Source: Acidobacteriota bacterium
Lineage (GTDB): Bacteria; Acidobacteriota; Polarisedimenticolia; Polarisedimenticolales; JBBIHW01
Length of the DNA: 31,157 bases
Assembly (NCBI GenBank): GCA_037446795.1
Contig: JBBIHW010000001.1
Location: forward strand, 1-31,157
Reading direction: 5' to 3'
Positions 11,635 to 31,157 of this stretch are shown here, piece after piece. Within the stretch, counting starts at the first letter, position 1; each line of letters starts with the position of its first letter. The notes under the pieces are model-generated. The model searched no databases. It had not been told where the DNA came from and worked only from the letters and a program-made list of their open reading frames with translations. A program made the position numbers and the translations under genes.

Positions 11635-14600
11635 CTATGCTCCCGCTCGGACCCTCCCCGGTCGCTCCACGGAACCCCTCGTCGGCGGGCTCGCGACCGA
11701 GAGCTTCGCCAGGTGCTGCAGGATCGCCGCGCGCCGCTCCACGATCTTCCGGGTCGCCTCGACGAACCTCCGCGCGGCCTCGGGGCCCGCCTCCCCGACG
11801 GCGCGGAAGCGTCCCTCGCGGCGGAGGAACCCCTCGACAGGGACCCTGGGAGCGGGGGAGTCCAGCACGAGCGGCGGCTGGCCCGCCTCCGCGCGGCGGG
11901 GGTCGAACCGGTAGAGCGGCCAGATCCCCGAATCCACGGCGAGCTTCTGCTGCTCGGTCCCGTGCACGAGCTCGTAGCCGTGGGCGACGCACGGGCAGTA
12001 GGCGATCACCAGCGAGGGACCTCGGTAGGTCTCGGCCTCGACGAGCGCCCGCACCGTCTGGGCGTCCTTGGCGCCGAGGGCCACCTGCGCCACGTACACG
12101 TGGCCGTAGCTCATCGCCATGAGGCCGAGGTCCTTCTTCGGCGTCCGCTTCCCCGTCACCGCGAACTTGGCCGCGGCGCCGAGCGGGGTGGCCTTCGACT
12201 GCTGGCCGCCCGTGTTCGAGTAGACCTCGGTGTCCAGCACGAGGACATTGACGTCCCGGCCGGTCGAGAGCACGTGGTCGAGCCCGCCGAAGCCGATGTC
12301 GTAGGCCCATCCGTCCCCGCCGACGATCCAGACCGTCTTCCGCACGAGCCAGTCGGCGATTCGCTCGAGCCTCCTCGCCTCGGGAAGCTCGGCCCCCCGG
12401 AGGCGGCGCTTCAGTTCGGCGACGCGCTCCCGCTGCGCGGCGACCTCCGCCTCGCTGCGGGCCTCGGTCTCGAGGATCGCCCGGGCGAGCGCCTCGCCCA
12501 CGTGCGGGGACAGCCGGACCAGAAGCTGCGCGGCCTGCCCGGCCAGGCTGTCCACGGCCAGCCGGAACCCGAAGCCGAACTCGGCGTTGTCCTCGAACAG
12601 GGAGTTGCTCCACGCCGGCCCTCGGCCCTCCCGGTTCGCGCACCAGGGGGTCGTCGGCAGGTTTCCGCCGAAGATCGAGGAGCAGCCCGTGGCGTTGGCG
12701 ACGAGCAGGCGGTCGCCGAACAGCTGGGTCAGGAGCTTGAGGTAGGGTGTTTCGCCGCAGCCGGAGCACGCCCCCGAGAACTCGAACAGCGGCTCGAGCC
12801 ACTGCGATCCCTTGACGTCGAGCCGCACCGTCTCCCGCGGAGGGTCGGGGAGGCCGAGGAAGAAGTCCCAGTTCGGCCGCTCCCCCTCGCGCAGCGCCGC
12901 GGCCGGCTCCATGCGGAGCGCCTTGCGCGACGGTTCCTGCTTGTCGTGGGCCGGGCAGACGGCCACGCACAGGGCGCAGCCGGTGCAATCGTCCGGAGCG
13001 ACCTGCAGCGCGTAGGACCACCCGCGGAAGTCGCGGCCCTCGTACGCGGTCGTCCTGAACCCCTCCGGGGCGCCCTCGAGAGCCTCCGGCGGGACGACCT
13101 TCGCGCGGATCGCCGCGTGAGGGCACAGCAGCGCGCACTTGTTGCACTGGATGCAGAGGGCCGGCTCCCAGACCGGCAGCTCGCGGGCGATCCCCCGCTT
13201 CTCCCAGCGCGAGGTGCCGACGGGCCAGGTGCCGTCCACGGGGAACGCGCTGACGGGAAGGTCGTCCCCGTGACCGGCGAGCATCGCGGCCGTGACGCGC
13301 TGGACGAAGTCCGGCGCCTCGGCGGGAACGACCGGCAACCGGCTTCGCGGGGAGGTCGCCCGGTCCGGGATGCGGACCTCGTGCAGGTGGGACAGGGCCG
13401 CGTCCACCGCAGCCAGGTTGCGGCGCACGGTGTCCTCTCCGGATCTCGCGTAGCTCCGGCGCACCGATTCTCGGATGCGGGCGAGCGCCTCCTCCCGCGG
13501 AAGCAGCCCGGCGAGCTCGAAGAAGCAGGTCTGCATGATCGTGTTGATGCGCCCGCCGAGGCCCACCTCTCGGGCGAGGCGGTGGGCGTCCACCACGAAC
13601 ACCGCAACCGCTTGGCGACGATCTCCTCCTGGACCTCCCGAGGCAGGTGGTCCCAGACCTTCTCCGGAGGATAGGGAGCATTGAGAAGAACCTTGCCCCC
13701 GGGCTCGGCCCGCTCCAGCACCCGGTGGCGCTCGAGGAGGGGGAACTGGTGGCAGGCGACAAGCTCCGCCCGCCGGAGGAGGTAGGGGGAGCGGATCGGC
13801 TCGCGGCCGAAGCGGAGGTGGGACACGGTCACCGCGCCCGACTTCTTCGAGTCGTAGACGAAGTAGCCCTGGACGTTGAGGTCCGTCGCCTCGCCGACGA
13901 TCTTCACCGAGCTCTTGTTGGCTCCTACGGTTCCGTCCGAGCCCAGCCCGAAGAACAGGGCGCGGAAGCGGCCGGCGGGCTCGATGTCGAAGTCGGGGTC
14001 GAACGGCACCGAGCTGCCGGTGACGTCGTCCACGATCCCGACCGTGAAGTGGTTTCGCGGCGCGTCCCGGCGAAGCTCCTCCAGGACGCCGCGGACCATG
14101 GCGGGGGTGAACTCCTTCGAGGACAGGCCGTAGCGGCCGCCCACGACGGTCGGGGGCCGCTCGCCGGCCAGGACGCCCGAGCCCCAGGCTTCCCGCACGG
14201 CGGCCACCACATCGAGGTAGAGCGGCTCGCCGACGGCGCCCGGCTCCTTCGTCCGGTCGAGCACGGCGAGGGCCCGGGTGGATCGGGGGAGGGCGGCCGC
14301 GAAGTCCGGAACGGAGAAGGGCCGGAACAGGCGGACCTGCACGACCCCGACCTTCTCCCCCCGGGCGGCGAGGTGCTCCACGGTCTCCCGGGCGGTCTCG
14401 GCCGCCGAGCCCATGACGACGACGACCCGCTCCGCCTCGGGGTGGCCGGCGTAGTCGAAGAGGCGATAGGCGCGGCCCGTGCGCGCGGCGAGCTCCTCCA
14501 TCGTCGCCCGAACGATTCCGGGGCAGGCGAGGGTGTACGGGTTCGCGGCCTCCCGCGCCTGGAAGAACGTGTCGGGGTTCTGCGCCGTCCCCCGCAGCAC

Positions 14601-15242
14601 CGGCCGGTCGGGTGTCAGCGCCCTTTCGCGGTGGGCGTGGACGAGCTCTTCGGGGACGAGGGCGCGCAGATCCTCGTCGGAGAGCTCCTCGATCCTCGTG
14701 ATCTCGTGCGACGTTCGGAACCCGTCGAAGAAGTGCAGGAACGGGATCCGGGAGCGGAGCGACGCGAGGTGCGCCACGAGCGCGAGGTCGTGCGCCTCCT
14801 GGACCGACGCCGAGGCGAGCATGGCGACGCCGGTCTGCCGGCAGGCCATGACGTCCGAGTGGTCCCCGAAGATGGAGAGCGCGTGCGTCGCCACGGTGCG
14901 CGCGGCGACGTGCAGGGTGAGCGGCGTCAGCTCTCCTGCGATCTTGAAGAGATCGGGGATCATGAGCAGCAGTCCCTGCGAGGCGGTGAAGGTCGTGGCG
15001 AGCGATCCCGCCTGGATCGCTCCGTGAAGGGCCCCGGCGGCACCCGCCTCGGACTGCATCTGGACGACCTCGGGAACGGCTCCCCACACGTTGCGCATCC
15101 CGCGAGCCGACCACTCGTCCGCCGCCTCGCCCATGGCCGACGCGGGCGTGATGGGATAGACCGCGATGACCTCGCTCAGCCGATAGGCCACCGAGGCGGC
15201 CGCTTCGTTTCCATCCACGGTGATCCGACGGGGTGCCGGCAC
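11635..15242 (-). pseudogene. nifJ: Pyruvate:ferredoxin (flavodoxin) oxidoreductase, NifJ-type homodimeric, with one apparent frameshift at about 13601-13603 (true lesion or sequencing error)
   Basis: GTG 15242 after GGGAGGGAG. The N-terminal frame has DGNEA, YPITPA, MQSEAGAAG and GLGSDGTVGANK; the C-terminal frame has RINTIMQTCFF, CIQCNKC..CP, DCTGC..C..CP, FSGACSGCGE, NATGCSSI and GGDGWAYDIG. Adding one base yields about 1202 aa. Confidence 0.92.
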
Positions 15243-15287
15243 GAGACTCCCTCCCGCAGCGCTCGGGCTGCCCTCGGGACGACCGGG

Positions 15288-15303
15288 TGCACGATCGAAG
15301 CCA
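15288..15303 (-). promoter_or_regulatory. Candidate sigma54 -24/-12 promoter for PFOR
   Basis: TGGCTTCGATCGTGCA has exact GG-N10-GC spacing and lies about 46 nt before the start codon. It deviates from TGGCACG at three positions. Confidence 0.4.
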
Positions 15304-15595
15304 GGCCGGACGCGCCTTCCGCCGCACCGGTCGGCCGCGCGCGGCGCAAACATTGCGATTCGCCCGGGGCGGACGCGCTTTTTTCGGGCCCGCAGGCCGC
15401 GGGGCGCCGGCCCGGGATCCGGGCCGCGGACCCGGCGGGCAGCGGAGCCCATCCTGCTCCCTTTCGGACGGCGGCCGTCTGTTTGCGGAGCGCGCGCGAG
15501 CCCGGCAGGGCGCGCCGGCCCTCTTCCGGTATCGGACAGGTCCGAGGCGATCGGCGCCGCTTCGCGGCCTCTCCGGGCAGACAGCTTCTCGCTCA

Positions 15596-15611
15596 GGGCA
15601 CGCTTGTTGCG
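15596..15611 (+). promoter_or_regulatory. Sigma54 -24/-12 promoter for the cytochrome c-HybA-HybB operon
   Basis: GGGCACGCTTGTTGCG matches GGCACG-N4-TTGC. It is followed by GGAGGAGG and GTG 15643. Confidence 0.65.
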
Positions 15612-15642
15612 ACCTCGCCAGCTCGGGAGGAGGACTGCGACG

Positions 15643-16002
15643 GTGCGCCGGCCCGCTCTCGTGGCTCCGCTCGTGGCGGGGATCGCGGCGGCCGCTCTGG
15701 CGGCGGGCGCGGCGGGGGAACCTGCCAGGTGGCGCCTGCCGGCCGCGATCGTCTTCGAGGGGAATCCGGAGTCGCCCGGACGGGTGGTGTTCCGCCACGA
15801 CAGCCACGTCTCGCTCCAGCCGAAGGCCTGCCTCGGCTGCCATCCGGCGCTGTTCCCGATCCTCAGGCCCGTTCGCACGACGAGCCACGCGCGCATGGAG
15901 GCGGGCGATTCCTGCGGCGCCTGTCACGACGGAGGAAAGGCGTTCTCGGCGCGAGACGGAGGGGCGTGCGAGGTCTGTCACGTCCAGGGGGAACAAGGGT
16001 GA
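15643..16002 (+). CDS. Triheme c7-type periplasmic cytochrome c
   Basis: Signal peptide followed by FRHDSH, CLGCH, CGACHDG..AF and CEVCH (three CxxCH) plus a Met before heme 2. This pattern resembles c7-type triheme domains. SD GGAGGAGG. Confidence 0.88.
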   Translation: MRRPALVAPLVAGIAAAALAAGAAGEPARWRLPAAIVFEGNPESPGRVVFRHDSHVSLQPKACLGCHPALFPILRPVRTTSHARMEAGDSCGACHDGGKAFSARDGGACEVCHVQGEQG

Positions 16003-16784
16003 GCGCCGGACTCCTGATCGACGCCACCCTCTGCGTCGGATGCGGCGCCTGCGAGGCTGCCTGCAAGGAGGCCAACGGGCTCCCGCTCCCGGTCGAAGAG
16101 CGGACCACGGCCTACACCTGGACCGTCGTGCAGCAACGCGAGGGGCAGTACGTGCGCAGGCTGTGCATGCACTGCCTCGAGCCGACGTGCGTGTCGGTCT
16201 GTCCCGTGGGCGCGCTTTCGAAGACGGAGGCCGGGCCCGTCGTCTACGACCCGAAGCGGTGCATCGGGTGCCGCTACTGCATCATGGCCTGCCCGTTCGG
16301 CGTCCCGAAGTACCAGTGGGACCGGCCCGTGCCGGTGGTGGGGAAGTGCGTGCTGTGCGCGGGCCGCCTCGAGCAGGGGCTCGCGCCTGCGTGCGCCGCC
16401 GTCTGCCCGACCGGCGCCTCGCTCTTCGGCCGGCGGGACGAGCTGCTGCAGGAGGCGCGAGCCCGGATCGCCTCGGAGCCCGGCCGTTACGTGAACCGCG
16501 TCTACGGCGCCGAGGAGGCGGGCGGGACCTCCGTCCTCCTGCTCTCGAGCGTCCCGTTCGAGCGGCTCGGGTTTCCCGCCGGCCTGCCGAAAGAGCCGCT
16601 TCCGCTCCGGACGTGGCAGGTCCTGTCCAAGATCCCCGACTTCGTGGTTCTCGCCGGCGTGTTTCTCTACGGGCTGTTCTGGATCACCAGGCGCCGGGAG
16701 CAGGTGCGGGCCGCGGAGGGCGAGCCGCGCGAGGCGGACCTGGACGAGCGGCCCGCTCCGGGAGACGGGGAGGCAGCCCCGTGA
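15999..16784 (+). CDS. HybA/FdnH/NrfC-like 4x[4Fe-4S] electron-transfer protein with C-terminal membrane anchor
   Basis: CVGCGACEAAC, CMHCLEPTCVSVCP, CIGCRYCIMACP and KCVLC...PAC...CP, ending in a C-terminal TM helix. GTGA overlap with the cytochrome gene. Confidence 0.92.
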   Translation: MSAGLLIDATLCVGCGACEAACKEANGLPLPVEERTTAYTWTVVQQREGQYVRRLCMHCLEPTCVSVCPVGALSKTEAGPVVYDPKRCIGCRYCIMACPFGVPKYQWDRPVPVVGKCVLCAGRLEQGLAPACAAVCPTGASLFGRRDELLQEARARIASEPGRYVNRVYGAEEAGGTSVLLLSSVPFERLGFPAGLPKEPLPLRTWQVLSKIPDFVVLAGVFLYGLFWITRRREQVRAAEGEPREADLDERPAPGDGEAAP

Positions 16785-17974
16785 ACGCCGCGCGGCCCGC
16801 GTCCGACCCGCCGGGCGCCGTCAGGTTCTGGCGCGCCGTGTTCGCCCTGGTGGTCGCGGCCTTCGCCGTGGCCACGGTTCTGCGGTTCGGGCTCGGGCTC
16901 GGCGCGGTCACGAACCTGTCGGACCGCTTCCCGTGGGGCCTCTGGATCGGCTTCGACGTCCTGTGCGGCGTCGGTCTCGCGGCCGGTGCGTTCACCCTGA
17001 CCGCCGTCGTGCACCTGCTGAACCTCCGGCGCTTCGAGCCGATCCTCCGCTCCACGGTGCTCACGGCGCTGCTCGGTTATCTGCTCGTGATCGTGGCCCT
17101 GCTGTTCGACCTGGGGCAGCCGTGGCGCATCCGGCACCCGCTCGTGTTCCGCAATCCGCACTCGGTCATGTTCGAGGTGGCCTGGTGCGTGATGCTCTAC
17201 ACGACCGTGCTCGCCTTCGAGTTCGCGCCGGTCGTCTTCGAGAGACTGAGCCTCCACACCCTCGGGAGCGTCCTCCGCGCCGTCTCGACGCCGCTGGTGA
17301 TCGCGGGGGTCATCCTCTCGACGCTGCACCAGTCCTCGTTGGGCTCGCTCTACCTGATCGTCCCGGAGAAGCTCCACCCGCTCTGGTACACGCCCCTGCT
17401 GCCCCTGTTCTTCTTCATGTCCGCGGTCGGAGCGGGGCTCGGGATGGTCGTTCTGGAGTCGTGGCTGTCGGGGCGCGCCTTCGGCCGCGAGCTCGAAATG
17501 GATCTGCTCGAGCCCCTCGCGCGGGCGATGGCGGTCGTGCTCGGGGTCTACGGCCTGCTCCGCCTCATCGTTCTCCGGCGCGCCGGGGCGCTGGCGCGTT
17601 TCGCCGATCCCGGCTACGAGGAGGCGATGTTCGCCGTGGAGCTCGCCCTGGGCGTCCTGCTGCCCGTCGGGCTGCTCGCCCTCCCGCGCGTGCGCCGGAG
17701 CGGCCGCGGGCTCGTGGTCGCGGCGTTCCTGGCGGTGCTCGGGCTCGTCGCCAACCGCCTGAACGTGAGCGTGACCGGGATGGAGGCAGCTGCCGGGGCC
17801 CGATACCTTCCCTCGGTGATGGAGGTCCTGGTCTCTCTCGGGCTCGTCGCGCTCGGCTTTGCCCTGTTCGCGTTCGCCGCGCGGTGGCTGCCCGTCTTCC
17901 CCGAGCGCGGCGCGACGACGCCCGGGAGGCGGGCCGAGACGGCCCGCCCGGTCGCCGAGCCCGTGGAGGTCTAG
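16781..17974 (+). CDS. NrfD/PsrC-family quinone-interacting membrane protein, HybB-like
   Basis: TNLSDRFPWGLWIGFDVLCGVGLAAG, DLGQPWR, SVMFEVAWC and LSTLHQSSLG; polytopic. GTGA overlap. Confidence 0.9.
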   Translation: MNAARPASDPPGAVRFWRAVFALVVAAFAVATVLRFGLGLGAVTNLSDRFPWGLWIGFDVLCGVGLAAGAFTLTAVVHLLNLRRFEPILRSTVLTALLGYLLVIVALLFDLGQPWRIRHPLVFRNPHSVMFEVAWCVMLYTTVLAFEFAPVVFERLSLHTLGSVLRAVSTPLVIAGVILSTLHQSSLGSLYLIVPEKLHPLWYTPLLPLFFFMSAVGAGLGMVVLESWLSGRAFGRELEMDLLEPLARAMAVVLGVYGLLRLIVLRRAGALARFADPGYEEAMFAVELALGVLLPVGLLALPRVRRSGRGLVVAAFLAVLGLVANRLNVSVTGMEAAAGARYLPSVMEVLVSLGLVALGFALFAFAARWLPVFPERGATTPGRRAETARPVAEPVEV

Positions 17975-17976
17975 TG

Positions 17977-19887
17977 GTGCGTTCGCGGCTCGGGACCCAG
18001 GTCGTCCTCGGCGTGGCGCTGACCAGCGTTCTCACCCTGGGCGCGATGATCGCGTTCGTGCTCCGAGCTCACCGCGCAGCTCTGACCGGGGAGCTCCACC
18101 GCGTGGCGGACCAGCTCGGCGCGACGATCAAGACCGCGACGCACGACGACATGCTGGAAAACCGCCGCGACCGCCTCCGCCGCCAGATCGAGGCCCTCGG
18201 CCGCCAGGAAGGCATCCAGAGCGTGCGCGTGTACAACAAGGAAGGTCGCATCGTGTTCGCCTCCGACCCTGCCGAGACGGGCCGGGCCGTGGACAAGCGC
18301 GCCGAGGCCTGCTACGCGTGCCACGCCGAGGACCGCCCGCTGGAGCGCCTGCCGACCCCGGCGCGATTCCGGATCTTCCGCGGTCCCGACGGCGAGCGCC
18401 TGCTGGGGATCATCCATCCGGTCCAGAACGAGCCGAGCTGCTGGACGGCCTCCTGCCACGCCCACGACCCCGAGGACACCGTCCTCGGGGTCCTGGACGT
18501 CACGGTGTCGCTCGCTCAGGTGGACCGCAACATCGCCTCGAGCCAGCGGCGCATGGCGGCGCTGGCCGCGGTCGCGATCGCCGCCAGCGCCTTCATCCTG
18601 TGGTGGCTGATCCGCCGGCTCGTGCTGAAGCCCGTCCGGGCCCTCGCCGCCGGCACGCGACGCGTGGCCGAGGGCGACCTGACCGCCACCGTCCCCGTGG
18701 CCGCGCGCAACGAGCTCGGCGAGCTGGCCCGGTCCTTCAACGAGATGACCGTCCGGCTCGCCGAGGCGCAGCGCCAGCTCACCCAGGCGGACAAGCTGGC
18801 GTCGGTGGGGCGACTCGCGGCGGGGATGGCCCACGAGATCAACAACCCTCTGACGGGCGTGCTCACCTACGCCTCCTTCCTGCTCAAGCGATGCGAGTCG
18901 GACCCCGCCCTCCGGGAGGATCTCGAGGTCGTCGTCCGCGAGACGAAGCGCTGTCGGGACATTGTGAAAGGACTCCTCGACTTCGCCCGCCCGGCCCCGC
19001 CCCGCCGCGTCCCGGCCGATCTCAACGACGTCGCCCGGCGGGCGGCGCGGATCCTGATGAACCAGCTCGCCCTCAACCGCGTCGGCCTCGCCCTCGACCT
19101 CGCCGAGGATCTGCCCGCGGTTCCGGCGGACGCCAACCAGATCCAGCAGGTGCTCGTCAATCTGCTGGTGAACGCGGCGGACGCGATCGGAGAGGAGGGG
19201 GGCACGATCCGGGTGTCCACGCGGCTCGTGCGGCTGCCGCCCCGGGGGAATCGGCCGATCCGCTCGGCGCGGTGCCCGAAGGGATGCGACCTCCTGGACG
19301 TCGCGTGGAGGATCGGGGGGCTTCCGTCCATCCGCGTCCTGCGGAGGTGCGGAGATCAGGAGGCGGCCTACCACCTCGACCCGACCTACGGGCGCTTCAA
19401 CCACAGGGCCGGAGCGCCGTGCGAGGAGGGCGTCCTCGCCGGCTTCGAGTGCCCGCGCTGCCGGACCGCGCTCGTGGTTCCGGACGTCCGCTGCGACAGC
19501 TGCGGCGCTCCGGCCTTCGCCGTCTCGACCGTGGAGGGAGGCCGGGTCCTGTGGTGCACGCGCAACGGTTGTCACTGGTCTCGGTGGGACTGGGCGGAGG
19601 CAGCGGGCGAGGAGCCGGGGGTCGAGATCGCCGTCGAGGACACCGGGCGCGGGATTGCGGCCTCGGACCTGCCCCACGTTTTCGAGCCCTTCTTCACCAC
19701 GAAGGGGCCGCGCGGGACGGGCCTCGGCCTGTCCATCTCCTGGGGGATCGTCAACGCCCACGGCGGGACCATCGAGGTGTGGAGCGAGGAAGGCAGAGGA
19801 AGCCGGTTCACCGTGAGGCTGCCCGTCGGCGCGGTCGCCCCGGCGTCGCCTGCCGCCGCGGCCGACGCCGCGGCCGCCCGGGCGTGA
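17977..19887 (+). CDS. Sensor histidine kinase with extracytoplasmic heme-c motifs, HAMP, HisKA, and HATPase_c carrying a Cys-rich insertion
   Basis: TM-CYACH...CWTASCH-TM-HAMP, H-box AHEINNPL, N-box QVLVNLLVNA, an insert with 10 Cys, then DTGRG/FFTTK/GTGLGL. Start GTG 17977 (or 17974) after GGAGG. Confidence 0.9.
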   Translation: MRSRLGTQVVLGVALTSVLTLGAMIAFVLRAHRAALTGELHRVADQLGATIKTATHDDMLENRRDRLRRQIEALGRQEGIQSVRVYNKEGRIVFASDPAETGRAVDKRAEACYACHAEDRPLERLPTPARFRIFRGPDGERLLGIIHPVQNEPSCWTASCHAHDPEDTVLGVLDVTVSLAQVDRNIASSQRRMAALAAVAIAASAFILWWLIRRLVLKPVRALAAGTRRVAEGDLTATVPVAARNELGELARSFNEMTVRLAEAQRQLTQADKLASVGRLAAGMAHEINNPLTGVLTYASFLLKRCESDPALREDLEVVVRETKRCRDIVKGLLDFARPAPPRRVPADLNDVARRAARILMNQLALNRVGLALDLAEDLPAVPADANQIQQVLVNLLVNAADAIGEEGGTIRVSTRLVRLPPRGNRPIRSARCPKGCDLLDVAWRIGGLPSIRVLRRCGDQEAAYHLDPTYGRFNHRAGAPCEEGVLAGFECPRCRTALVVPDVRCDSCGAPAFAVSTVEGGRVLWCTRNGCHWSRWDWAEAAGEEPGVEIAVEDTGRGIAASDLPHVFEPFFTTKGPRGTGLGLSISWGIVNAHGGTIEVWSEEGRGSRFTVRLPVGAVAPASPAAAADAAAARA

Positions 19888-19895
19888 GGCGCGCC

Positions 19896-20297
19896 ATGCG
19901 ACCGCGCTGGGACGTTCTGGTCGTGGACGACGAGGAGGTCGTCAGGAGCGGCGTGTCGCGGGTGCTCTCCGAAGCGGGCTACGAGGTCGCGACCGCGGCC
20001 GACGGCACCGCCGCCCTCGCGCACCCGGCGGCCTCCTCGTGTCGGCTCGTCCTGCTGGACCTGATGCTCCCCGACAGGTCCGGCATCGGCCTGCTCGAGG
20101 CTCTGCGCGAGCTGCGGCCCGACCGGCCGGTGGTCGTGATCACCGGCTACGCCACCTCCGAGAGCCTCGCGCGAGCTCTCGAGGCGGGCGCCGCCAGCGT
20201 GCTGGCGAAGCCGTTCGACGCCGCGGAGCTCCTCGATGCGGTCCGAACCGCCCTCGCCGAGACCGCTCCGGCGGGCGCCAGGAGGGATCCACCATGA
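19896..20297 (+). CDS. Single-domain response regulator (receiver only)
   Basis: VVDDE, LLDLMLP, ITGY and KPF; 133 aa with no output domain. Confidence 0.88.
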   Translation: MRPRWDVLVVDDEEVVRSGVSRVLSEAGYEVATAADGTAALAHPAASSCRLVLLDLMLPDRSGIGLLEALRELRPDRPVVVITGYATSESLARALEAGAASVLAKPFDAAELLDAVRTALAETAPAGARRDPP

Positions 20298-21403
20298 CCG
20301 CGCTGCTCGTCCTGCTCCTGTTCGCCGGCTTCGCCGTCGTGGACATCCTGGTGCGGGTCGGGGCGCGCCGCCTCGCGCAGGCGCGCGCGCGCCGGGAGCG
20401 GGAGGCCATCCTCGCCACCTCCGTCCGCCTGGACTTCACCCAGGAGGCGCCCACCCTCAAGCGGGTGGAGGTGCCGGACGCGCTCGCGCGCATCCTGGCC
20501 GTGGACGACGAGCCGATCGTCCTCGACAGCTTCCGGAAGATCCTGGTTCTCGCCGGCTTCAGCGTGGATACGGTGGAGAGCGGCCCGGAAGCCCTCGGCC
20601 TCGTCCAGCGGCGCGACTACGACTTCGTGTTCACGGACCTCAAGATGCCCGGCATGGACGGGGTCGAGGTGGTCAAGGCGGTGCACCACCTGCGGCCCGA
20701 CGTGGACATCGCCGTCATCACCGGCTACGGGACCATCGAGTCGGCGGTGGAAACCATGCAGCACGGAGCCGTGGACTACGTCCAGAAGCCGTTCACGGAG
20801 GAGGAGCTGGTGGCCTTCGCCCGCAGACTGCTCCTCCGGCGGCAGGCGCGCCTCGAGCGCGAGCGACGTCCCTCGGTGCGGCTGGTGGCCCCGGCCCTCG
20901 CCGACGCGGCGCCCGGCGGCGAGTACCGGGTCCCGGGCGGCGTGTTCCTCTCCGAGGGGCACACCTGGGCTCGGATCGAGCCCGACGGCAACGTCCGGGT
21001 GGGCCTCGACGACTTCGCGCGCCGGGCGCTGGGGCCCATCGAGCGCGTCGAGGCGGCAGCCCGCGGGACCGCCGTGCGGCGCGGGGAGACCCTCTTCACG
21101 GTTCGGAGCGGGAACCGGGCGGCGCGCCTTCCGGCTCCGTTGAGCGGGCGCGTGGTTCGCGTTCACGAGGCGCTCGCCCGCGACGGCTCTCCGGTGAGCG
21201 AGAGCCCGTACGAGCGCGGCTGGGTGGTCGTGCTCGAGCCCGCGAACCTCGCCCGGGAACTCCCCGGGCTCAGGATCGGCGGCCCCGTGGTCGCCTGGTA
21301 CCAGGAAGAGATCGCACGCCTCCGGCAGATGGGCGAGGTGCCGGAGGACTGGTCGGCGTTCGAGAGCGAGTTCCTGCGCGCCCGCACGGCGACTCCGATC
21401 TGA
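20294..21403 (+). CDS. Membrane-anchored response regulator fused to a glycine-cleavage H-protein-like domain
   Basis: N-terminal hydrophobic helix; receiver AVDDE...TDLKMP...ITGY...KPF; then GHTWAR...VGLDDFA..ALG...APLSGRV...SPYERGW (GcvH fold). ATGA overlap. Confidence 0.87.
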   Translation: MTALLVLLLFAGFAVVDILVRVGARRLAQARARREREAILATSVRLDFTQEAPTLKRVEVPDALARILAVDDEPIVLDSFRKILVLAGFSVDTVESGPEALGLVQRRDYDFVFTDLKMPGMDGVEVVKAVHHLRPDVDIAVITGYGTIESAVETMQHGAVDYVQKPFTEEELVAFARRLLLRRQARLERERRPSVRLVAPALADAAPGGEYRVPGGVFLSEGHTWARIEPDGNVRVGLDDFARRALGPIERVEAAARGTAVRRGETLFTVRSGNRAARLPAPLSGRVVRVHEALARDGSPVSESPYERGWVVVLEPANLARELPGLRIGGPVVAWYQEEIARLRQMGEVPEDWSAFESEFLRARTATPI

Positions 21404-22691: not shown

Positions 22692-23003
22692 GTGCTCGGG
22701 ACGCTGGCGCGAGAGGCGGGCCGCGAGCGGCGTCCGGTCGTCCGGAGGCCGCCGCCCGTCCGCGGATCCGTCCACATCCGACCGGACCGCTGCAAGGGCT
22801 GCGGCTTCTGCGTCGAGTTCTGCCCGAACGACGTGCTCGTGCTCTCGAGCGAGTTCAACGCGAAGGGGTTCCACTACCCCGTCGTCGTCGCGGATGCGTG
22901 CGTGGACTGCAAGCTGTGCACGCGCCTCTGCCCCGAGTACGCGATCTTCTCCACGCCGCTGCCCGAGGGCGCTCGCCCGGCGGGAGCGGGGAGGAACCCG
23001 TGA
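22692..23003 (+). CDS. korD: 2-oxoacid:ferredoxin oxidoreductase delta subunit (2x[4Fe-4S] ferredoxin-like)
   Basis: [12 protein letters not shown]...FNAKGFHYP...[19 protein letters not shown] after GGGAGG; GTGA overlap with the alpha subunit. Confidence 0.85.
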
Positions 23004-24190
23004 GCGACGGCGGCCTTCTGACCGGAGAACACTTCATGCTGGGCGACGACGCGCTCGCCGAAGGGGCGATCGCCGCGGGGTGCAGGTTCTTCGCTGGCTA
23101 CCCGATCACACCCTCCACCGAGACGGCGGAGCGGATGGCGAGGAGGATGCCGCAGGTCGGAGGGGTCTACCTCCAGATGGAAGACGAGATCGCCTCCATC
23201 GCCGCGATCCTGGGGGCCGCCTGGGCCGGCGCGAAGGTCATGACGGCGACCTCGGGCCCGGGCTTCTCCCTCATGCTGGAAAACCTCGGTCTCGGCATCA
23301 TCACCGAGACCCCCGCGGTCATCTGCAACGTGCAGCGGGCCGCCCCCTCCACGGGGCTGCCGACCCTCGTGGGTCAGGGCGACATGCAGCAGGCCCGCTG
23401 GGGTTCCCACGGCCACTACGAGATCATCGCGCTCGCGCCCTGGACCGCGCAGGAGTGCTTCGACCTGACGGTGCGCGCCTTCAACCTGGCGGAACGGTTC
23501 CGTCTGCCGGTGCTCGTGATGGCGGACGCCGAGGTCGGCCACCTGACCGAGAAGGTCGTCATCCCGCCGCCGGACATGCTCGAGGTCTGGGACCGCCCGG
23601 CGCCGGCCGAGCCCCCCGACCGTTTCGACCCGAGCGCGACGAGGGACCTCGTCCCGCCGATGCCGAAGGCGGGCGACGGCTACCACGTGTTCGTGGAGAG
23701 CCTCACCCACGACGAGCGCGGCTATCCGGTCATGACCGCCGAGGCGCAGGGCAAGCTCGTGCGCCGGCTCGTCGCCAAGATCCAGGAGAACCGGGCGTGG
23801 ATCGAGGACGTGGACGAGCGCGGGGTCGCCGAGGCCGAGGTGATCGTCGTCTCCTACGGCATCTCCGCGCGCGTCGCGACGCGGGCGATCGAGCGGGCGC
23901 GGCGGCGCGGCCTCGCCGCGGGGCTCCTGCGGCTGCGCACCGTGTGGCCCTTCCCGGACCAGAGGATCCGGGCGCTGTCGGCCCGGGTGCGCGGCTTCGT
24001 CGTCCCCGAGATCAACCTGGGGCAGATCGTCCGGGAGGTGGAGCGGTGCGCCGTCGACCGCTGCCGCGTCGCGCTGGTCCCTCACGCGGGAGGGGCGCTG
24101 CACGATCCCGAGGAGATCGCCGACGCCATCGCCGCGGTCGCGGCGGGCCGCGCCCCCTGTCGCGGGGAGCTCGCCGGGCGAGGAGCCTGA
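23000..24190 (+). CDS. korA: 2-oxoacid:ferredoxin oxidoreductase alpha subunit (four-subunit Kor/Oor type)
   Basis: [35 protein letters not shown] and [10 protein letters not shown]. Substrate specificity is not determinable. Confidence 0.9.
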
Positions 24191-24191
24191 G

Positions 24192-26195
24192 GTGGCGCGG
24201 ATCGGCGTGTTCGTCTGCCACTGCGGGGAGAACATCGCCCGCACGGTGGACGTGGCGCGCGTGGCCGGCGAGGCGCGGAAGATGCCCGGGGTCGCCTTCG
24301 CCACCGACTACCTTTACATGTGCTCGGCGCCGGGCCAGAAGCTGCTCGCCGAAGCGATCGCCGAGCACGGCCTGACCGGTGTCGTCGTCTCCGCCTGTTC
24401 GCCGCAGCTCCACGAGCCGACCTTCCGCGCGGCGGCGGCGCAGGCCGGCCTCAACCCGTTCCTCTGCGAGATGGCCAACATCCGGGAGCAGTGCTCCTGG
24501 GTGCATCCGTCCCGGGAGGCGGGGACCGCCAAGGCGTGCCGGCTGGTCGCCGCCGCCGTCGAGAAGGTCCGCCACGCGCGGCCGCTCGAGCCGGCGGGGG
24601 TGCCCGTCACCCGCAGGGCCCTCGTGATCGGGGGCGGGGTGGCCGGCATCCGGGCGGCGCTGGACATCGCCTCGGCAGGTCACGAGGTCGTGCTCGTGGA
24701 AAAGCAGCCCTCGATCGGCGGCAACATGGCGCGCCTGTCCGAGACGTTCCCGACGCTCGACTGCTCGCAGTGCATCCTCACGCCGCTCATGGTAGAGGCG
24801 GCGCGCCACCCGAACATCGAGTTGCTGACCTCCGCGGAGGTGGAGGAGGTCGGCGGCTACGTGGGCTCCTTCCGCGTGCGCATCCGCAGGAAGCCCGCCT
24901 ACGTGAAGCCCGACCTCTGCACAGCATGCGGGGACTGCGCGTCGGCCTGTCCCGTGTCGGTGCCCAACGAGTTCGACCGCGGCCTGTCCTGGCGCAAGGC
25001 GATCTACATCCCGTTCCCTCAGGCCGTGCCCGCCACCTACACCCTCGACGCGAACAGCTGCCTCAACGCCAAGCAGGAATCGGCGACCGGCTACCGCGTG
25101 CTCGCCTGCGAGAGGTGCGCGGAGGCATGCGACCGGCAGGCCATTGACTACGACGCCCGGCCGGAGATCCTCGAGCGGGAGGTGGGCGCCATCGTCGCGG
25201 CCACCGGCTACGAGCTGCTGCCCCGCGGCTCGCTCGAGGAGTACGGCTACGGTCGCTACGCGGACGTCGTGGACGGCCTGGAGTTCGAGCGGCTGCTGTC
25301 GGCCTCGGGACCGACCGAGGGGGAACTCCGCAGGCCCTCGGACGGGCGCCCGGTGCGCGACGTGGTGTTCGTGCAGTGCGCGGGCTCGCGCGACCCGCGC
25401 CGCGGCGTGCCGTACTGCTCGCGCATCTGCTGCATGGTGACCGCGAAGCATGCGCTGCTGTTCAAGCACAAGGTCGCCGACGGGCGCGCCACGGTCTTCT
25501 ACATGGACATCCGCGCCGGAGGAAAGGGGTACGAGGAATTCGTCCGGCGCGTCATGGAGGAGGAGCGCGTCCTGTACGTCCGCGGGCGTGCGAGCCGCGT
25601 GGTACCGCACGACGGCGAGCTGGTGGTGTTCGGCGCGGACACGCTGTCCGGGCAGCCCGTGCAGGTGCGGGCCGATCTCGTGGTCCTGGCCACCGCGATG
25701 ACGCCCGCGCCGGGCGACCTCGCGGCCCGCCTCCGGATCCCCACGGACCCGCACGGCTTCTTCCAGGAGGCCCACCCGAAGCTCCGGCCTGTGGAGACCC
25801 TCGCCGCGGGGGTCTACGTCACGGGCGCCGCGCAGGCCCCCAAGGACATCCCGGACACGGTGGCGCAGGCCTCGGCCGCCGCCTCGAAGGCGCTCGAGCT
25901 GCTGTCCAGGACCGAGCTGCGGCGCGAGCCGACGACCGCCCGCGTCCGCGAGGCGCGCTGCATGGCCTGCTTCGAGTGCGCCCGGGTCTGCCCGTACAAG
26001 GCCGTCGCCGTCGAGGAGATCCGCGACCGGGAAGGGAAGGTCGTCAGGCAGGTGGCCGCCGTGCGGGTCGCGATGTGCGAGGGGTGCGGTGCGTGCGTGG
26101 GTGCGTGCAGGACCGGGGCGATGGACCTGGACGGGTTCGCGGACGAGCAGCTGTTCGCCCAGATCGAGGCGCTCGCGCGGAGGGAGGCGGCGTGA
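24192..26195 (+). CDS. hdrA: Heterodisulfide reductase subunit A (FAD, Fe-S; flavin-based electron bifurcation)
   Basis: RIGVFVCHCG, CSP..HE..FR, NIREQCSWVH, GGGVAG, TFPTLDCSQC, inserted ferredoxin CTACGDC..CP, CSRICCM and C-terminal ferredoxin motifs. Confidence 0.95.
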   Translation: MARIGVFVCHCGENIARTVDVARVAGEARKMPGVAFATDYLYMCSAPGQKLLAEAIAEHGLTGVVVSACSPQLHEPTFRAAAAQAGLNPFLCEMANIREQCSWVHPSREAGTAKACRLVAAAVEKVRHARPLEPAGVPVTRRALVIGGGVAGIRAALDIASAGHEVVLVEKQPSIGGNMARLSETFPTLDCSQCILTPLMVEAARHPNIELLTSAEVEEVGGYVGSFRVRIRRKPAYVKPDLCTACGDCASACPVSVPNEFDRGLSWRKAIYIPFPQAVPATYTLDANSCLNAKQESATGYRVLACERCAEACDRQAIDYDARPEILEREVGAIVAATGYELLPRGSLEEYGYGRYADVVDGLEFERLLSASGPTEGELRRPSDGRPVRDVVFVQCAGSRDPRRGVPYCSRICCMVTAKHALLFKHKVADGRATVFYMDIRAGGKGYEEFVRRVMEEERVLYVRGRASRVVPHDGELVVFGADTLSGQPVQVRADLVVLATAMTPAPGDLAARLRIPTDPHGFFQEAHPKLRPVETLAAGVYVTGAAQAPKDIPDTVAQASAAASKALELLSRTELRREPTTARVREARCMACFECARVCPYKAVAVEEIRDREGKVVRQVAAVRVAMCEGCGACVGACRTGAMDLDGFADEQLFAQIEALARREAA

Positions 26196-27613
26196 ACGGG
26201 ACCCTGCTCGAGATCGGGCCGCCCGCGGCGCGGGAGGAGCGGTCGGGGTTCGAGCCCGTGGTCGTGGCCATCGTGTGCAACTGGTGCACGTACGCGGGAG
26301 CCGACATGGCGGGGACGACGCGCAGGGCGTACCCGCCGAACGTGCGGCTGCTGCGCGTGCCGTGCACGGGACGCGTCAGCCCTCTGCAGGTCCTCAAGGC
26401 TTTCGAGCAGGGCGCGGACGGCGTGCTCGTGTCCGGCTGCCATCCCGGCGACTGCCACTACGTCCACGGGAACCTCGTCGCACGCAGGCGCCTCGCGATC
26501 CTCCGGGCGCTGCTCGACTTCGTCGGCCTCGACGCGCGGCGCTTCCACGTCTCGTGGGTGTCCGCCTCCGAGGGGGTCCGCTGGGCGCGCGTGGTCGAGA
26601 CGGTGACCCGTGCCGTGCGGGAGGCGGGGCCCCTCGACGCCTGGAGTCCCCGGGACGGCGAAGAGCCGGTCCGGCTCCCCGAGCCGCCCCCCGCCCCGTC
26701 TCCCCCCGCGTCGCCGGAGGAGCAGGAGGCGGTCGGCCGCAACCTGCGATCGCTCGCCGCGAGCCTCCTCGGGGAGGGCCGAGTGACCGTCTTCCTCGGC
26801 TACGGGGAGGCGACCCTTCCCGGCCGCGCCGTCCCGCTGCTCGCCACGGACCTCGCGGAAGCCAGCGCGCTGGTCTGGAACGACCGCTGCCACTCGAACC
26901 TCGCCGTGTACCTCGCCGGGCCGAACCGCGTCCCGGGGAAGGTCGCGGTCGTCCTCAAGGCCTGCGACGCGCGCGCGGTCATCGGGCTGCAGCAGGAAGG
27001 GCAGCTCCGGCGCGAGGACTTGGTCCTGGTCGGCGTGCGCTGCCCGGGAGTCCGCGAGGAGGACGGCCGGCTCGCGCTCAAGTGCCATGCCTGCGACGGG
27101 GAGGTCGCCGCGGGCTGCGACTTCACCGTGTCGGCCGATGGGGTGGAGACGGGCGCTGCGAGGTCGGCCGCTCCGCGCGCGGTGGCCCCGGACCCGCGCG
27201 ACGCCGCGATCGCCTTCCTCGAAGGGCTCCCTCCCGCGCGGCGCTGGGCGTTCTGGCGAGAGCAGTTCGACCGGTGCCTGCGGTGCTACGCGTGCCGTGC
27301 GGTCTGCCCGCTCTGCTACTGCGGCACCTGCATCAGCGAGCACCACCGGCCGCAGTGGATCCCCGCGTCCATCGGCCCGCGCGGGAACGCCTCGTGGAAC
27401 GCGATCCGGGCGTATCACCTCGCGGGCCGCTGCGCGGGCTGCGACGAGTGCACGCGGGCGTGCCCCGCGCGGCTGCGGCTCGACCTCCTCAACCGCCGCC
27501 TCGCCCTCGAGGTGGAGCGGCGGTTCGGCTACCGCGCGGGGGAGGACCCGAGCGCGGCGCCGCCCCTCGCCGCCTTCCGTCCGGAGGATCCGCAGGAGTT
27601 CGTCCACGCATGA
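26192..27613 (+). CDS. flxCD: MvhD/FlxD [2Fe-2S] domain fused to an FlxC-like 4Fe-4S domain (FlxCD fusion)
   Basis: CNWCTYAGAD, VPCTGRV and GCHPGDCHY (MvhD), then a Pro-rich linker, then CLRCYACRAVCPLCYC and HLAGRCAGCDECTRACP. Confidence 0.85.
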   Translation: MNGTLLEIGPPAAREERSGFEPVVVAIVCNWCTYAGADMAGTTRRAYPPNVRLLRVPCTGRVSPLQVLKAFEQGADGVLVSGCHPGDCHYVHGNLVARRRLAILRALLDFVGLDARRFHVSWVSASEGVRWARVVETVTRAVREAGPLDAWSPRDGEEPVRLPEPPPAPSPPASPEEQEAVGRNLRSLAASLLGEGRVTVFLGYGEATLPGRAVPLLATDLAEASALVWNDRCHSNLAVYLAGPNRVPGKVAVVLKACDARAVIGLQQEGQLRREDLVLVGVRCPGVREEDGRLALKCHACDGEVAAGCDFTVSADGVETGAARSAAPRAVAPDPRDAAIAFLEGLPPARRWAFWREQFDRCLRCYACRAVCPLCYCGTCISEHHRPQWIPASIGPRGNASWNAIRAYHLAGRCAGCDECTRACPARLRLDLLNRRLALEVERRFGYRAGEDPSAAPPLAAFRPEDPQEFVHA

Positions 27614-28677
27614 GCACCGCCTTCGATCGAAACGGGAGCTGGTCGCTGGACGCGGCCGATCTGCGAGCATGGATCGGAGGGCTCGTCGGCTCGGGCGCGC
27701 GCGTCGTGGCGCCCGCCGAGCGGGAGGGGCTGTGGACCTTTCGCCCGCTGCGCTCCGGCGAGGAGCTGGCGCTTCCCGCCGGATTCCCCGCGTGGTCGCC
27801 GAAGGAGTTCCTGTTCCCGAGGACGGAGACCCTGTTCCGGTACGAGTCGTCCGGAGGCGAGCCGGGGCTCGAGGATCCGGTGCGCGAGGACGTTCCGCAG
27901 GTCCTGTTCGGCCTGGCTCCGTGCGACGCCGCGGGGCTCGTCCGGCTCGACGCGGTGCTCGGCGCCGACCCGGCCTACGCCTCGCGCCGGGCGCTCACGA
28001 CGGTCGTCACGCTCGCCTGCGACGCGGCCCGCCCGGAATGCTTCTGCACCACGGTGGGCGGGAGCCCCCACGGCGAAGAAGGCGGCGATCTCCTCCTCGT
28101 CCCGAGCGACGGGGCCTTCCTGCTGCGGCCGCTCACCCGGAAGGGGACCGAGCTCGCGGCGGGGGCGTCGGCGAGCTGGGCGCCAGCGACCGCCGAGGCA
28201 TGGGAGCGCGCCCGAGCTCGCCTCCGCGAGGTCGCCGAGGCGGTGGGCCGGAGCCCTCTCGCGCATGGATTCGCCGAAGGGCTCGAGCGGCGGTTCGGCT
28301 CCCGGGCCTGGCAGCAGGTCGGCCGGCGCTGTCTCGGCTGCAGCATCTGCACCTACGTGTGCCCCTCCTGCTCCTGCTTCGACATCCAGGACGAGGGCTC
28401 GCCGGGCTGCGGGCGGCGCTGCCGGATCTGGGACAGCTGCACCTTCGGCCTGTTCACGCTGCACGCCTCCGGCCACAACCCCCGCCCGAACCAGGCGGCG
28501 CGCTACCGGCAGCGCGTGCTCCACAAGTTCAGCAGCTACCCGCTCGAGCACGGAGGGGTCCCGATGTGCGTCGGCTGCGGCCGGTGCGTGCGCCTGTGTC
28601 CGGCGGGCCTCGACGTGCGGGAGACCGTCGAGCGGGTCCTCGCCGAGGGAAAGGAGCCCCGGCATGCCGGCCCCTGA
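27610..28677 (+). CDS. flxB: FlxB/AsrA-like 4Fe-4S protein
   Basis: SPKEFLFP, PCD, CFC, CLGCSICTYVCPSCSCF, WDSC, RYRQR..HKF and CVGCGRCVRLCP. ATGA overlap. Confidence 0.85.
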   Translation: MSTAFDRNGSWSLDAADLRAWIGGLVGSGARVVAPAEREGLWTFRPLRSGEELALPAGFPAWSPKEFLFPRTETLFRYESSGGEPGLEDPVREDVPQVLFGLAPCDAAGLVRLDAVLGADPAYASRRALTTVVTLACDAARPECFCTTVGGSPHGEEGGDLLLVPSDGAFLLRPLTRKGTELAAGASASWAPATAEAWERARARLREVAEAVGRSPLAHGFAEGLERRFGSRAWQQVGRRCLGCSICTYVCPSCSCFDIQDEGSPGCGRRCRIWDSCTFGLFTLHASGHNPRPNQAARYRQRVLHKFSSYPLEHGGVPMCVGCGRCVRLCPAGLDVRETVERVLAEGKEPRHAGP

Positions 28678-29551
28678 CCCCGCCTCGGCCCCGTCGCTCT
28701 CCCGCGAGGCGCCGGGAAACGGGAACGCGAGCCCGTTCCGGCCCCGCCTGTTCCGGATCGCGAGCTATCGGGACGAAACACCCGACGTGCGGACGTTCCG
28801 GCTCGAGCGGGCCGACGGGGGAGGGCCGCTTCGCTGGAGGCCGGGACAGTTCGTTCACGTCTCGGTGTTCGGTGCGGGCGAGGCGGTCTTCACCCTCGCC
28901 AGCTCGCCCTCCCGCGGCGAGACGGTGGAGTGCACGGTCCGCGCGGTGGGCAAGGTGACCGAGGCGCTGCGCGGCCTCGGCGAGGGGGACGTCGTCGGCG
29001 TGCGCGGCCCCTATGGAACTGCGTTTCCGGTGGACGAGTGGCGCGGATCCGACCTGGCGTTCGTCGGCGGCGGGATCGGCATGGCCGCGCTCCGGGCGCC
29101 GCTGCAGTGGGTGCTCGATCACCGGGAGGAGTACGGCGAGATCGTCGTCCTGAACGGCGCGCGCACCGTGGCCGACCTGGCCTACAAGGACGAGATGGGC
29201 GAGTGGGGCGCGGTACCCGCGACGCGCGTGGTCCGGACCGTGGATCCCGGAGGCGAGAGCCCGGGCTGGGACGGGGAGGTGGGCCTCCTGCCGCAGGTGT
29301 TCGAGAGGCTCGCTCTCGCCCCGCAGGGGCGGATCGTGGTCACGTGCGGCCCGCCGGTGATGCTCCACTACATGTTCCTCGCCCTCGGGCGCATGGGCTA
29401 CGCGCCCGAGCGCGTGGTGACGACGCTCGAAAACAAGATGAAGTGCGGGTTGGGCCTGTGCGGGCGCTGCAACGTGGGGCGCTTCTTCGTGTGCACGGAC
29501 GGCCCCGTGGTGACGTGGGCGAGGCTCCAGGGCCTGCCCGAGGACCTCTGA
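28664..29551 (+). CDS. flxA: FlxA/AsrB-like FAD/NAD(P)-binding oxidoreductase with [2Fe-2S]
   Basis: PGQFV, VRGPYG, GGGIGMAAL, CGPPVM and KMKCGLGLCGRCNVG...CTDGPV. AAGGAG SD. Confidence 0.9.
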   Translation: MPAPDPASAPSLSREAPGNGNASPFRPRLFRIASYRDETPDVRTFRLERADGGGPLRWRPGQFVHVSVFGAGEAVFTLASSPSRGETVECTVRAVGKVTEALRGLGEGDVVGVRGPYGTAFPVDEWRGSDLAFVGGGIGMAALRAPLQWVLDHREEYGEIVVLNGARTVADLAYKDEMGEWGAVPATRVVRTVDPGGESPGWDGEVGLLPQVFERLALAPQGRIVVTCGPPVMLHYMFLALGRMGYAPERVVTTLENKMKCGLGLCGRCNVGRFFVCTDGPVVTWARLQGLPEDL

Positions 29552-30465: not shown

Positions 30466-30469
30466 CCCG

Positions 30470-31045: not shown

Positions 31046-31157
31046 TCCAGTCGCCCCGCCCGCCTGCGGACCTGGCTGCCGCCCACGAGCTCTGGGCGTG
31101 CTACCAGTGCGGCAAGTGCACCGCCGACTGCCCGTTCGGCCTGAGCCCGAGCCTCGT
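31042..31157 (+). CDS. hdrC: HdrC-like 4Fe-4S protein, truncated by the window end
   Basis: ATGA overlap with korC after GGAGGAGG. MIQSPRPPADLAAAHELWACYQCGKCTADCPF resembles the HdrC motif CYQCGKCTAGCP. Only 38 codons are visible. Confidence 0.6.
   Translation, partial: MIQSPRPPADLAAAHELWACYQCGKCTADCPFGLSPSL

Follow-up and report, generated by a model that had tools for sequence, protein, structure and literature searches.

A putative heme-sensing histidine kinase of an acidobacterial c7-NrfCD operon carries an eight-cysteine domain within its ATPase fold

The closest described counterparts of the sensor considered here are heme-binding signal transducers of Geobacter and Anaeromyxobacter. 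In GSU0935, the heme is bound through Cys140, Cys143 and His144, Met60 serves as a redox-dependent distal ligand, reduction is accompanied by a spin and ligand switch, and the protein binds NO and CO; twelve signal transducers of G. sulfurreducens contain one or two CX2-4CH motifs (PMC8396549). Anaeromyxobacter has sensors with an additional heme motif (PMC3831638), and the GSU sensors have been reclassified as heme-bearing Cache domains, sCache_heme (preprint 10.64898/2026.02.01.703092). Here, we describe a gene for a 636-residue sensor histidine kinase at positions 17977-19887 (+ strand) of a 31,157-nucleotide stretch of DNA from an Acidobacteriota bacterium (contig JBBIHW010000001.1 of assembly GCA_037446795.1, hereafter the window). 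Its sensor half is a variant of this already known kind of heme sensor with one or two CX2-4CH motifs, a kinship that a preliminary description of the window, made from the letters alone, had not noticed. Its catalytic half contains a 129-residue domain with eight conserved cysteines, spliced into the ATPase fold.

The open reading frame encodes a kinase of the ZraS/AtoS/NtrB-like type with the order TM-sensor-TM-HAMP-HisKA-HATPase_c (TM, transmembrane helix). Its translation is free of stops, full-length homologues number more than 120, and the N-termini of query and homologues align; a GTG serves as start codon, 3 nt beyond the stop of an NrfD-like gene. A 19-residue hydropathy scan of the whole protein revealed only two hydrophobic segments, TM1 (residues ~8-29, 17998-18063, peak centred on residues 14-22) and TM2 (residues ~192-214, 18550-18618, peak centred on residues 201-208). 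Residues ~30-190 thus form an extracytoplasmic loop with both heme motifs inside, which agrees with the preliminary description, whose coordinates for CYACH and CWTASCH, and whose placing of CPKGC, CPRC, CDSC and CTRNGCH, were likewise all reproduced. TM2 leads into a HAMP domain (residues 211-262, 18607-18762; PF00672, E 3.4e-16) and then into the HisKA domain (residues 278-339, 18808-18993; PF00512, E 1.8e-15), that is the dimerisation and histidine-phosphotransfer (DHp) helices, where H286 heads an HEINNP motif that is invariant in 25 of 25 aligned homologues. PF02518 matches the ATPase domain in two stretches (E 4.2e-23). The first (19009-19230, delimited by Pfam, the AlphaFold2 (AF2) model and the ZraS alignment) contains the N box NLLVNAADA (395) and the first strand of a hairpin; the second (19618-19827, Pfam stretch 547-617) contains the second hairpin strand and the G1 (DTGRGI, 555), F (FEPFF, 569) and G2 (GTGLGL, 580) boxes, so that all four boxes are intact. 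In NCBIfam, AtoS and ZraS score best, each far under its cut-off, and ZraS (9JFJ) is the best solved relative of the DHp and catalytic (CA) domains (E 3.8e-38), with the H, N, G1, F and G2 boxes kept and an unrelated sensor domain.

The window has a G+C content of 70-75%, and G+C at third codon positions of the kinase frame is 0.89-0.96 and stays at 0.89-0.93 within the insert. Because this codon bias runs unbroken through the insert, the insert is translated in frame, and we rejected a frameshift or a foreign element as its origin. For conservation, we aligned the query with 119 listed hits (120 sequences in all), drawn from at least 120 full-length homologues of ~620-680 residues and 59-91% identity. 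A separate search for related loci with the full-length alignment returned five full-length relatives among 80 loci, the remainder being generic kinases. Within the kinase core, the second DHp helix carries a further cysteine, C326 (18952-18954, motif ETKRCR), which is invariant in 120 of 120 sequences and may be another thiol site.

The sensor domain (residues 30-190, 18064-18546) has, in the AF2 model built from a 25-sequence alignment, a single Cache/PAS-like topology: a long N-terminal helix is followed by two strands, a helix bearing CYACH, two more strands, a short helix bearing CWTASCH, and a final strand continuous with TM2. CYACH (C112/C115/H116, 18310-18324) is a canonical heme c motif and a putative second or accessory site, and CWTASCHAH (C155/C160/H161 plus H163, 18439-18465, of which CWTASCH spans 18439-18459) is the putative core heme site with Cx4CH spacing. 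C112, C115, H116, C155, C160, H163 and Met59 (18151-18153) are each present in 120 of 120 sequences, and H161 in 119. Conservation extends to seven distant orthologues, two of them from Bacteroidota (21% identity). All seven have Cx4CHAH and Met59/Leu60/Asn62, and six have kept CxxCH, with CIPCAD in its place in the seventh (L020). Neither these motifs nor the eight insert cysteines described below are, judged by such conservation, chance features.

Comparison with GSU0935 and GSU0582 (3B42/3B47, PF21563) suggests how the two motifs would be used. As in these proteins, an extracytoplasmic Cache/PAS-like domain lies between two TM helices, a heme motif precedes the last strand at the equivalent point of the alignment, and the N-terminal helix carries a methionine (Met60 there, M59 here), which makes Met59 a candidate distal heme ligand by analogy. 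The 3B42 alignment (E 0.25) places the heme-binding CQSCH opposite CWTASCH. By contrast with GSU0935 and GSU0582, the motif at this position is Cx4CH rather than CxxCH, the canonical CxxCH being an extra motif between strands 2 and 3 and so away from the aligned position; an invariant histidine follows two residues past the proximal one; and the output is a histidine kinase instead of a chemoreceptor. Two c-heme motifs in one periplasmic PAS-like domain are also described for GSU0591, GSU0599, Adeh_2011 and Adeh_3383, which we liken to the present sensor by description only; GSU0599 is a two-component protein, as is the kinase here, and the accessible parts of these sources report no insert in the ATPase domain of any of the four (PMC8396549, PMC3831638). 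Among the seven orthologous sensors, PF21563 matches five at E<=0.05 (best E 2e-5) and sCache_3_2 matches four, all under the Pfam cut-offs, and a precomputed PF21563 match occurs in two of the 120 homologues among the matches listed. Since scores remain under the cut-off, we file the sensor as a divergent relative rather than a family member. From the sequence comparisons we conclude that in this divergent branch of Geobacter-type sensors Cx4CH is probably the ancestral site for heme and CYACH a second site, with a second heme most likely bound there in this kinase's lineage. The preliminary description had taken CxxCH in an exported domain as the mark of heme c. The extracytoplasmic position of both motifs, their invariance, the alignment of Cx4CH with CQSCH and four genomic matches to the cytochrome c assembly family PF01578 go in the same direction, and the sensor probably binds c-type heme covalently.

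The inserted domain spans residues 419-547 (19231-19617). It is missing from an otherwise close orthologue, could be modelled alone, and defines a profile family for which Pfam and NCBIfam have no model, with zinc-ribbon matches below threshold only. The preliminary description had reported a 10-cysteine insert of about 130 residues between the N box and the G1 box; length, site and cysteine count hold for this protein, but two of the ten cysteines are variable (C458 in 27 and C482 in 82 of the 120 sequences; H533, also less conserved, in 99), so that the domain is defined by eight cysteines in the order Cx3C, CxxC, CxxC, Cx4C. Pair 1 is C433-x3-C437 (CPKGC, 19273-19287), pairs 2 and 3 are C492xxC495 (CPRC, 19450-19461) and C506xxC509 (CDSC, 19492-19503), which together form a zinc-ribbon-like stretch (19450-19503), and pair 4 is C527-x4-C532 (19555-19572, within CTRNGCH, 19555-19575). 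C433, C492, C495, C506, C509, C527 and C532 are each conserved in 120 of 120 sequences, and C437 in 118, with histidine in the other two. The conservation of insert cysteines on which the preliminary description had staked its claim thus holds for eight of them. In a wider alignment of 67 domain sequences, seven cysteines, including those of pairs 2 to 4 and the equivalent of C433, are invariant and the eighth is cysteine or histidine. Insert length is 128-132 residues in 119 of the 120 homologues, and further invariant positions include several Gly, Pro, Asp and Arg residues.

AF2 predicts the insert with a predicted local distance difference test (pLDDT) score of 87-96 inside the full-length model, and alone as an all-beta domain with pLDDT 92.9 and predicted TM-score (pTM) 0.85. 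The two CxxC knuckles flank a beta-hairpin, C492xxC495-(10)-C506xxC509 with predicted strands on either side, as in zinc ribbons. Two Cys4 metal sites are the most likely arrangement, in which pairs 2 and 3 would make up a ribbon and pairs 1 and 4 would clamp the domain termini. Paired CxxC motifs had been taken in the preliminary description as binding Zn or Fe-S. The spacing is that of zinc-ribbon or rubredoxin-type knuckles; we rejected a ferredoxin-type Fe-S reading, as the insert contains no CxxCxxCxxxC(P) spacing and no Fer4 match at E<=1. The Foldseek comparison with the PDB that had been proposed found no fold match (best E 1.0). VIA-align against 48,161 representatives reached a best Z of 3.3, with partial and unconvincing similarity to TFIIS/Rpb9 ribbons (Z 2.6-3.3 over 43-50 residues), a sequence-profile search of the PDB gave generic zinc-finger matches only, and the ESM Atlas gave only 'hypothetical protein' clusters and automatic MetRS-knuckle labels. 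In the literature within reach of our search, most subscription journals lying outside it, we found no description of a cysteine or zinc-ribbon insertion in a kinase ATPase domain. As far as these literature, Pfam/NCBIfam and PDB fold searches show, the inserted domain and its placement are undescribed.

The insert replaces the turn of the beta-hairpin that connects the N-box strand to the G1-box strand. In orthologue L001, which shares 72% identity and the same operon, the corresponding segment reads ...IRLSTRATASEAGPGAEIVVEDGGSGI, a short hairpin with a 6-residue turn. ZraS (9JFJ) residues 19-157 and 164-237 align with query parts 1-140 and 274-348, leaving ~6 ZraS residues where the query has 133; in the AF2 model, strands 409-420 and 546-555 border the insert. 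In the GHKL fold, the pre-G1 hairpin turn points away from the nucleotide pocket. The ATP lid lies between the G1/F and G2 boxes, at residues ~555-585. Because the insert precedes G1 and the lid follows it, the earlier proposal that a metal module gates the ATP lid is without support.

All insert-bearing full-length kinases that we found belong to one kinase family, which includes a low-GC member (P0239) with the same sensor motifs and the same insert. In a maximum-likelihood tree of 33 kinases, calculated from an alignment stripped of the insert columns, with two Bacteroidota sequences as the assumed root, the insert-bearing kinases form one clade (SH-aLRT 97), and L001 is nested within a five-member subclade of it (97). 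This topology requires two changes, one gain and one loss of the insert, and the loss in L001 marks the insert as accessory. One orthologue that bears the insert (L103 7794-9553, genome G049) matches in two reading frames in its sensor and likewise in its core, and is either a frameshifted gene or the product of assembly errors.

Outside the kinase, the eight-cysteine domain is an independent, self-contained evolutionary module. With the insert as query, 11 of 61 related genomes gave matches: three insert kinases, two stand-alone proteins of ~150 residues (40-42% identity), several stand-alone proteins of ~133 residues (25-28%) and the C-terminus of a NuoE-like protein. The 150-residue subfamily (L085/L086) is the closest to the insert, and its loci have no neighbours in common. 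A 13-sequence profile searched against 1.84 billion representatives found 486 clusters (representatives at 50% identity) at E<=1e-3, 241 of them at E<=1e-10. Most of the listed representatives are stand-alone proteins. Pfam was run on 71 of the 150 listed, a selection with nearly all of those above ~160 residues: 15 have a PF01257 (NuoE-like) partner, one of them also with a receiver; eight have HATPase_c, as kinase fragments or full kinases; four have CBS; Cyclase/AAA_16, Mur ligase and TauE occur in one each; and the remainder have no partner or tandem copies. The Cyclase/AAA_16 case is P0142 (523 residues, metagenomic), in which a double zinc ribbon, an adenylate/guanylate cyclase and AAA_16 precede a C-terminal eight-cysteine domain closely resembling the NuoE-fusion copy of L087; it is either a true fusion or a chimeric contig.

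The domain occurs in 41 of 301 sampled genomes of the phylum, and we examined 29 loci. NuoE/NuoF contexts account for 11 of them: in eight the domain is fused to or adjoins NuoE, followed by NuoF, and in three the order is ATPase-only/HydS-like/domain/NuoE/NuoF. Two further loci are kinase inserts, and two contain tandem copies. One of the latter (L106 3-2355, G172) places a tandem eight-cysteine protein and a CBS protein beside a Rex-like protein with a DNA-binding N-terminus, a CoA-binding domain and a partial NuoE-like tail. The other 14 have unrelated neighbours, among them Ser/Thr kinase-FHA in two, an AMP-binding enzyme in two of two tested and DsbD_2 in two. The association with NAD(H)-linked flavoenzymes and kinase-type ATPases is recurrent, not universal. 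The same domain is thus found at the C-terminus of NuoE-like proteins, relatives of the NuoE/HydC/BfuC-type thioredoxin-like [2Fe-2S] subunits (PF01257), and in NuoEF/Bfu-type clusters its gene stands between those for a HydS-like protein and NuoE, in company with a gene for a separate ATPase of the kinase type. There, domain and ATPase are separate proteins, whereas in the present kinase the one is spliced into the fold of the other.

One of these clusters (L098; G001, contig 4, 5407-14418) begins with two DRTGG proteins, a 150-residue ATPase-only HATPase_c protein and an Fe-hydrogenase-like protein with Fe-S domains, and continues with a 133-residue eight-cysteine protein, NuoE, NuoF and a 1255-residue GltD/molybdopterin fusion. 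Its core order recurs in L119, L120 and L123, and the cassette upstream of the NuoEF-type enzyme looks regulatory. A co-fold prediction of the L098 stand-alone domain with the adjoining ATPase-only protein gave no verdict (score 0.00, run without controls) and is evidence neither way. A hisK gene lies inside a Bfu hydrogenase operon and is not part of the enzyme, and the accessible text of the same source does not mention an eight-cysteine domain with that operon (PMC9304861). Our literature search, with the coverage given above, found no description of this domain with NuoE/HydS, or of DRTGG/hydrogenase/NuoE/kinase clusters.

In the window, the kinase gene follows a c7-type triheme cytochrome gene (15600-16002, start approximate; PF14522, E 1.5e-15, with three CxxCH in the frame), as the preliminary description had noted, an NrfC-like 4Fe-4S subunit gene (15990-16784, start approximate; Fer4_11, E 6.7e-22) and an NrfD-like membrane subunit gene (16781-17974; PF03916, E 1.4e-23). 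It is followed by genes for a receiver-only response regulator (19884-20297; PF00072, E 1.3e-28) and a membrane receiver-GcvH-like protein (20294-21403; PF00072 and PF01597), all on the + strand. The order NrfC-NrfD-kinase-receiver is kept in eight of eight related loci, from Vicinamibacteria, Terriglobia and Bacteroidales metagenome-assembled genomes and three other relatives; the c7 gene is present in three of the eight, and there are GcvH-like matches nearby. Elsewhere in the window, a second, hybrid kinase (3634-5946, +) has the order sCache_3_2-HAMP-PAS-HisKA-HATPase_c-receiver and no insert. On the opposite strand, a nifJ-like pyruvate:ferredoxin oxidoreductase gene (11635-15996, -) with N-terminal POR_N, PFOR_II and POR matches is split over the overlapping frames 11635-15996 and 12729-15896, with a change of frame near 13400-13600 that reflects either a frameshift or an assembly error. 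From 22692 to 31157 (+), 2-oxoacid:ferredoxin oxidoreductase genes are interspersed with HdrA-like, MvhD/FlpD, Fer4_22 and FAD/NAD-binding genes.

Taken as a whole, these observations are in our view best explained, with the balance tipping modestly in its favour, by a heme-sensing kinase of a c7-NrfCD operon in which a Cys4-site domain within the ATPase adds a cytoplasmic input. The kinase would be co-transcribed with a quinone-linked c7-NrfC-NrfD electron-transfer module and two receiver proteins. By analogy with GSU0935, the Cx4CH heme would have His161 as its proximal and Met59 as its distal ligand, and its likely readout would be a redox-linked ligand and spin switch together with NO/CO binding, so that the sensor may report periplasmic redox potential or NO/CO through TM2 and HAMP. 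Its fixed partnership with NrfCD suggests that it probably watches the periplasmic face of this module and, in loci that have one, the c7 cytochrome. A cytoplasmic input most likely comes from the insert, through the redox state of its thiols and metal or the docking of a redox partner protein, and would modulate the way in which the ATPase domain engages the phospho-accepting helix. The preliminary description had the kinase integrate redox on both sides of the membrane: conservation and the 3B42 alignment speak for the heme-sensor side, the gating of the ATP lid falls away, and a 'dual redox' kinase is plausible but unproven.

Several points weigh against this explanation. For the sensor, the PDB offers a single sequence match, the heme sensor 3B42 of a Geobacter chemoreceptor, at a weak E of 0.25; the query scores 20.9 bits (whole protein) or 23.8 bits (sensor alone) against PF21563, under the cut-off of 27; and Cx4CH is a rarer heme motif. 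AF2 confidence falls below 50 exactly at both heme motifs, as expected for a model that has no cofactor, so that the pocket is not modelled. For the insert, its placement relative to the DHp domain and the ATP site, like the pairing of its cysteines, is read from topology; its clean loss in L001 means that the kinase can exist without it; the window's genome (completeness 90.8%) holds the kinase copy and no NuoE-linked or stand-alone copy; and with 14 of 29 loci among unrelated neighbours, the redox association of the domain is a tendency and not a rule.

The alternative that survives best, which we regard as a genuine if lesser possibility, is that the insert is a purely structural zinc-ribbon surface for docking or oligomerisation with no redox sensitivity, leaving the kinase a single, periplasmic input. 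It might then dock, for example, the receiver proteins, the GcvH-like effector or another kinase dimer. Such a role would fit the CxxC...CxxC knuckle spacing typical of structural zinc ribbons, the fact that TFIIS/Rpb9-type ribbons and sub-threshold Pfam zinc ribbons are the insert's only structural echoes, the way its N- and C-terminal cysteine pairs would hold the two ends of an insert close to each other, and the diverse company of the domain in 14 of the 29 loci. Recurrent fusion or adjacency to NuoE/NuoF, Rex-like, CBS and HydS-like proteins, however, points to redox or nucleotide-state biology and not to a generic scaffold. Zn-Cys4 sites can moreover act as redox switches, as in Hsp33 and RsrA, which also counts against a purely structural domain.

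A more specific proposal, which we consider rather improbable, is that the eight-cysteine domain is a regulator of GHKL ATPases coupled to redox or NAD(H) state, which links NuoE to a stand-alone ATPase elsewhere and is welded into a comparator kinase here. If so, the kinase would be a two-sided comparator of periplasmic heme potential and cytoplasmic electron-carrier state, and the NrfCD quinone module would be tuned directly, via the membrane receiver-GcvH-like effector, and not through transcription.

We consider it very unlikely that the insert is an evolutionary passenger, which a permissive surface loop accommodates and which hardly affects signalling. GHKL domains commonly vary in length at the pre-G1 hairpin turn, and a close orthologue in the same operon does cleanly without the insert; against this, the insert keeps its length, its eight cysteines and its Gly, Pro, Asp and Arg positions among homologues of 59-91% identity, and selection on the domain across 486 clusters argues for function. 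Least probable of all is that the periplasmic Cys/His motifs form disulfides or a metal site that senses thiol-oxidising conditions or a metal ion without heme: non-canonical Cx4CH spacing, CIPCAD in one distant orthologue and a sensor score under the PF21563 cut-off would allow it, but a histidine follows the second cysteine in 120/120 sequences at the one motif and in 119/120 at the other, Cx4CH lines up with the heme site of a solved structure, a conserved methionine occupies the distal-ligand position, maturation genes are present in the genome, and CX2-4CH is the stated signature of Geobacter heme sensors (PMC8396549).

If the kinase does combine a heme sensor with a regulatory Cys4-site domain, it would depart from the usual view of histidine kinases, in which inputs lie N-terminal to the catalytic core: a conserved metal domain that folds independently inside the ATP-binding domain would exert control by another route, one open to direct test since nature supplies an orthologue that lacks the insert. 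The eight-cysteine domain itself represents a large family yet to be characterised, with 486 clusters and a presence in 41 of the 301 genomes sampled from the phylum. Its recurrent partners, NuoE/NuoF, HydS-like, Rex-like and CBS proteins, connect it with how flavoenzymes of the electron-bifurcating type are regulated or assembled; accessory kinase-like ATPase genes of such flavoenzymes have been noted without an explanation. With the sensor half, the range of c-heme Cache/PAS sensors grows to include Acidobacteriota and Bacteroidota, and its fixed genomic partner, NrfCD, suggests what these heme sensors monitor.

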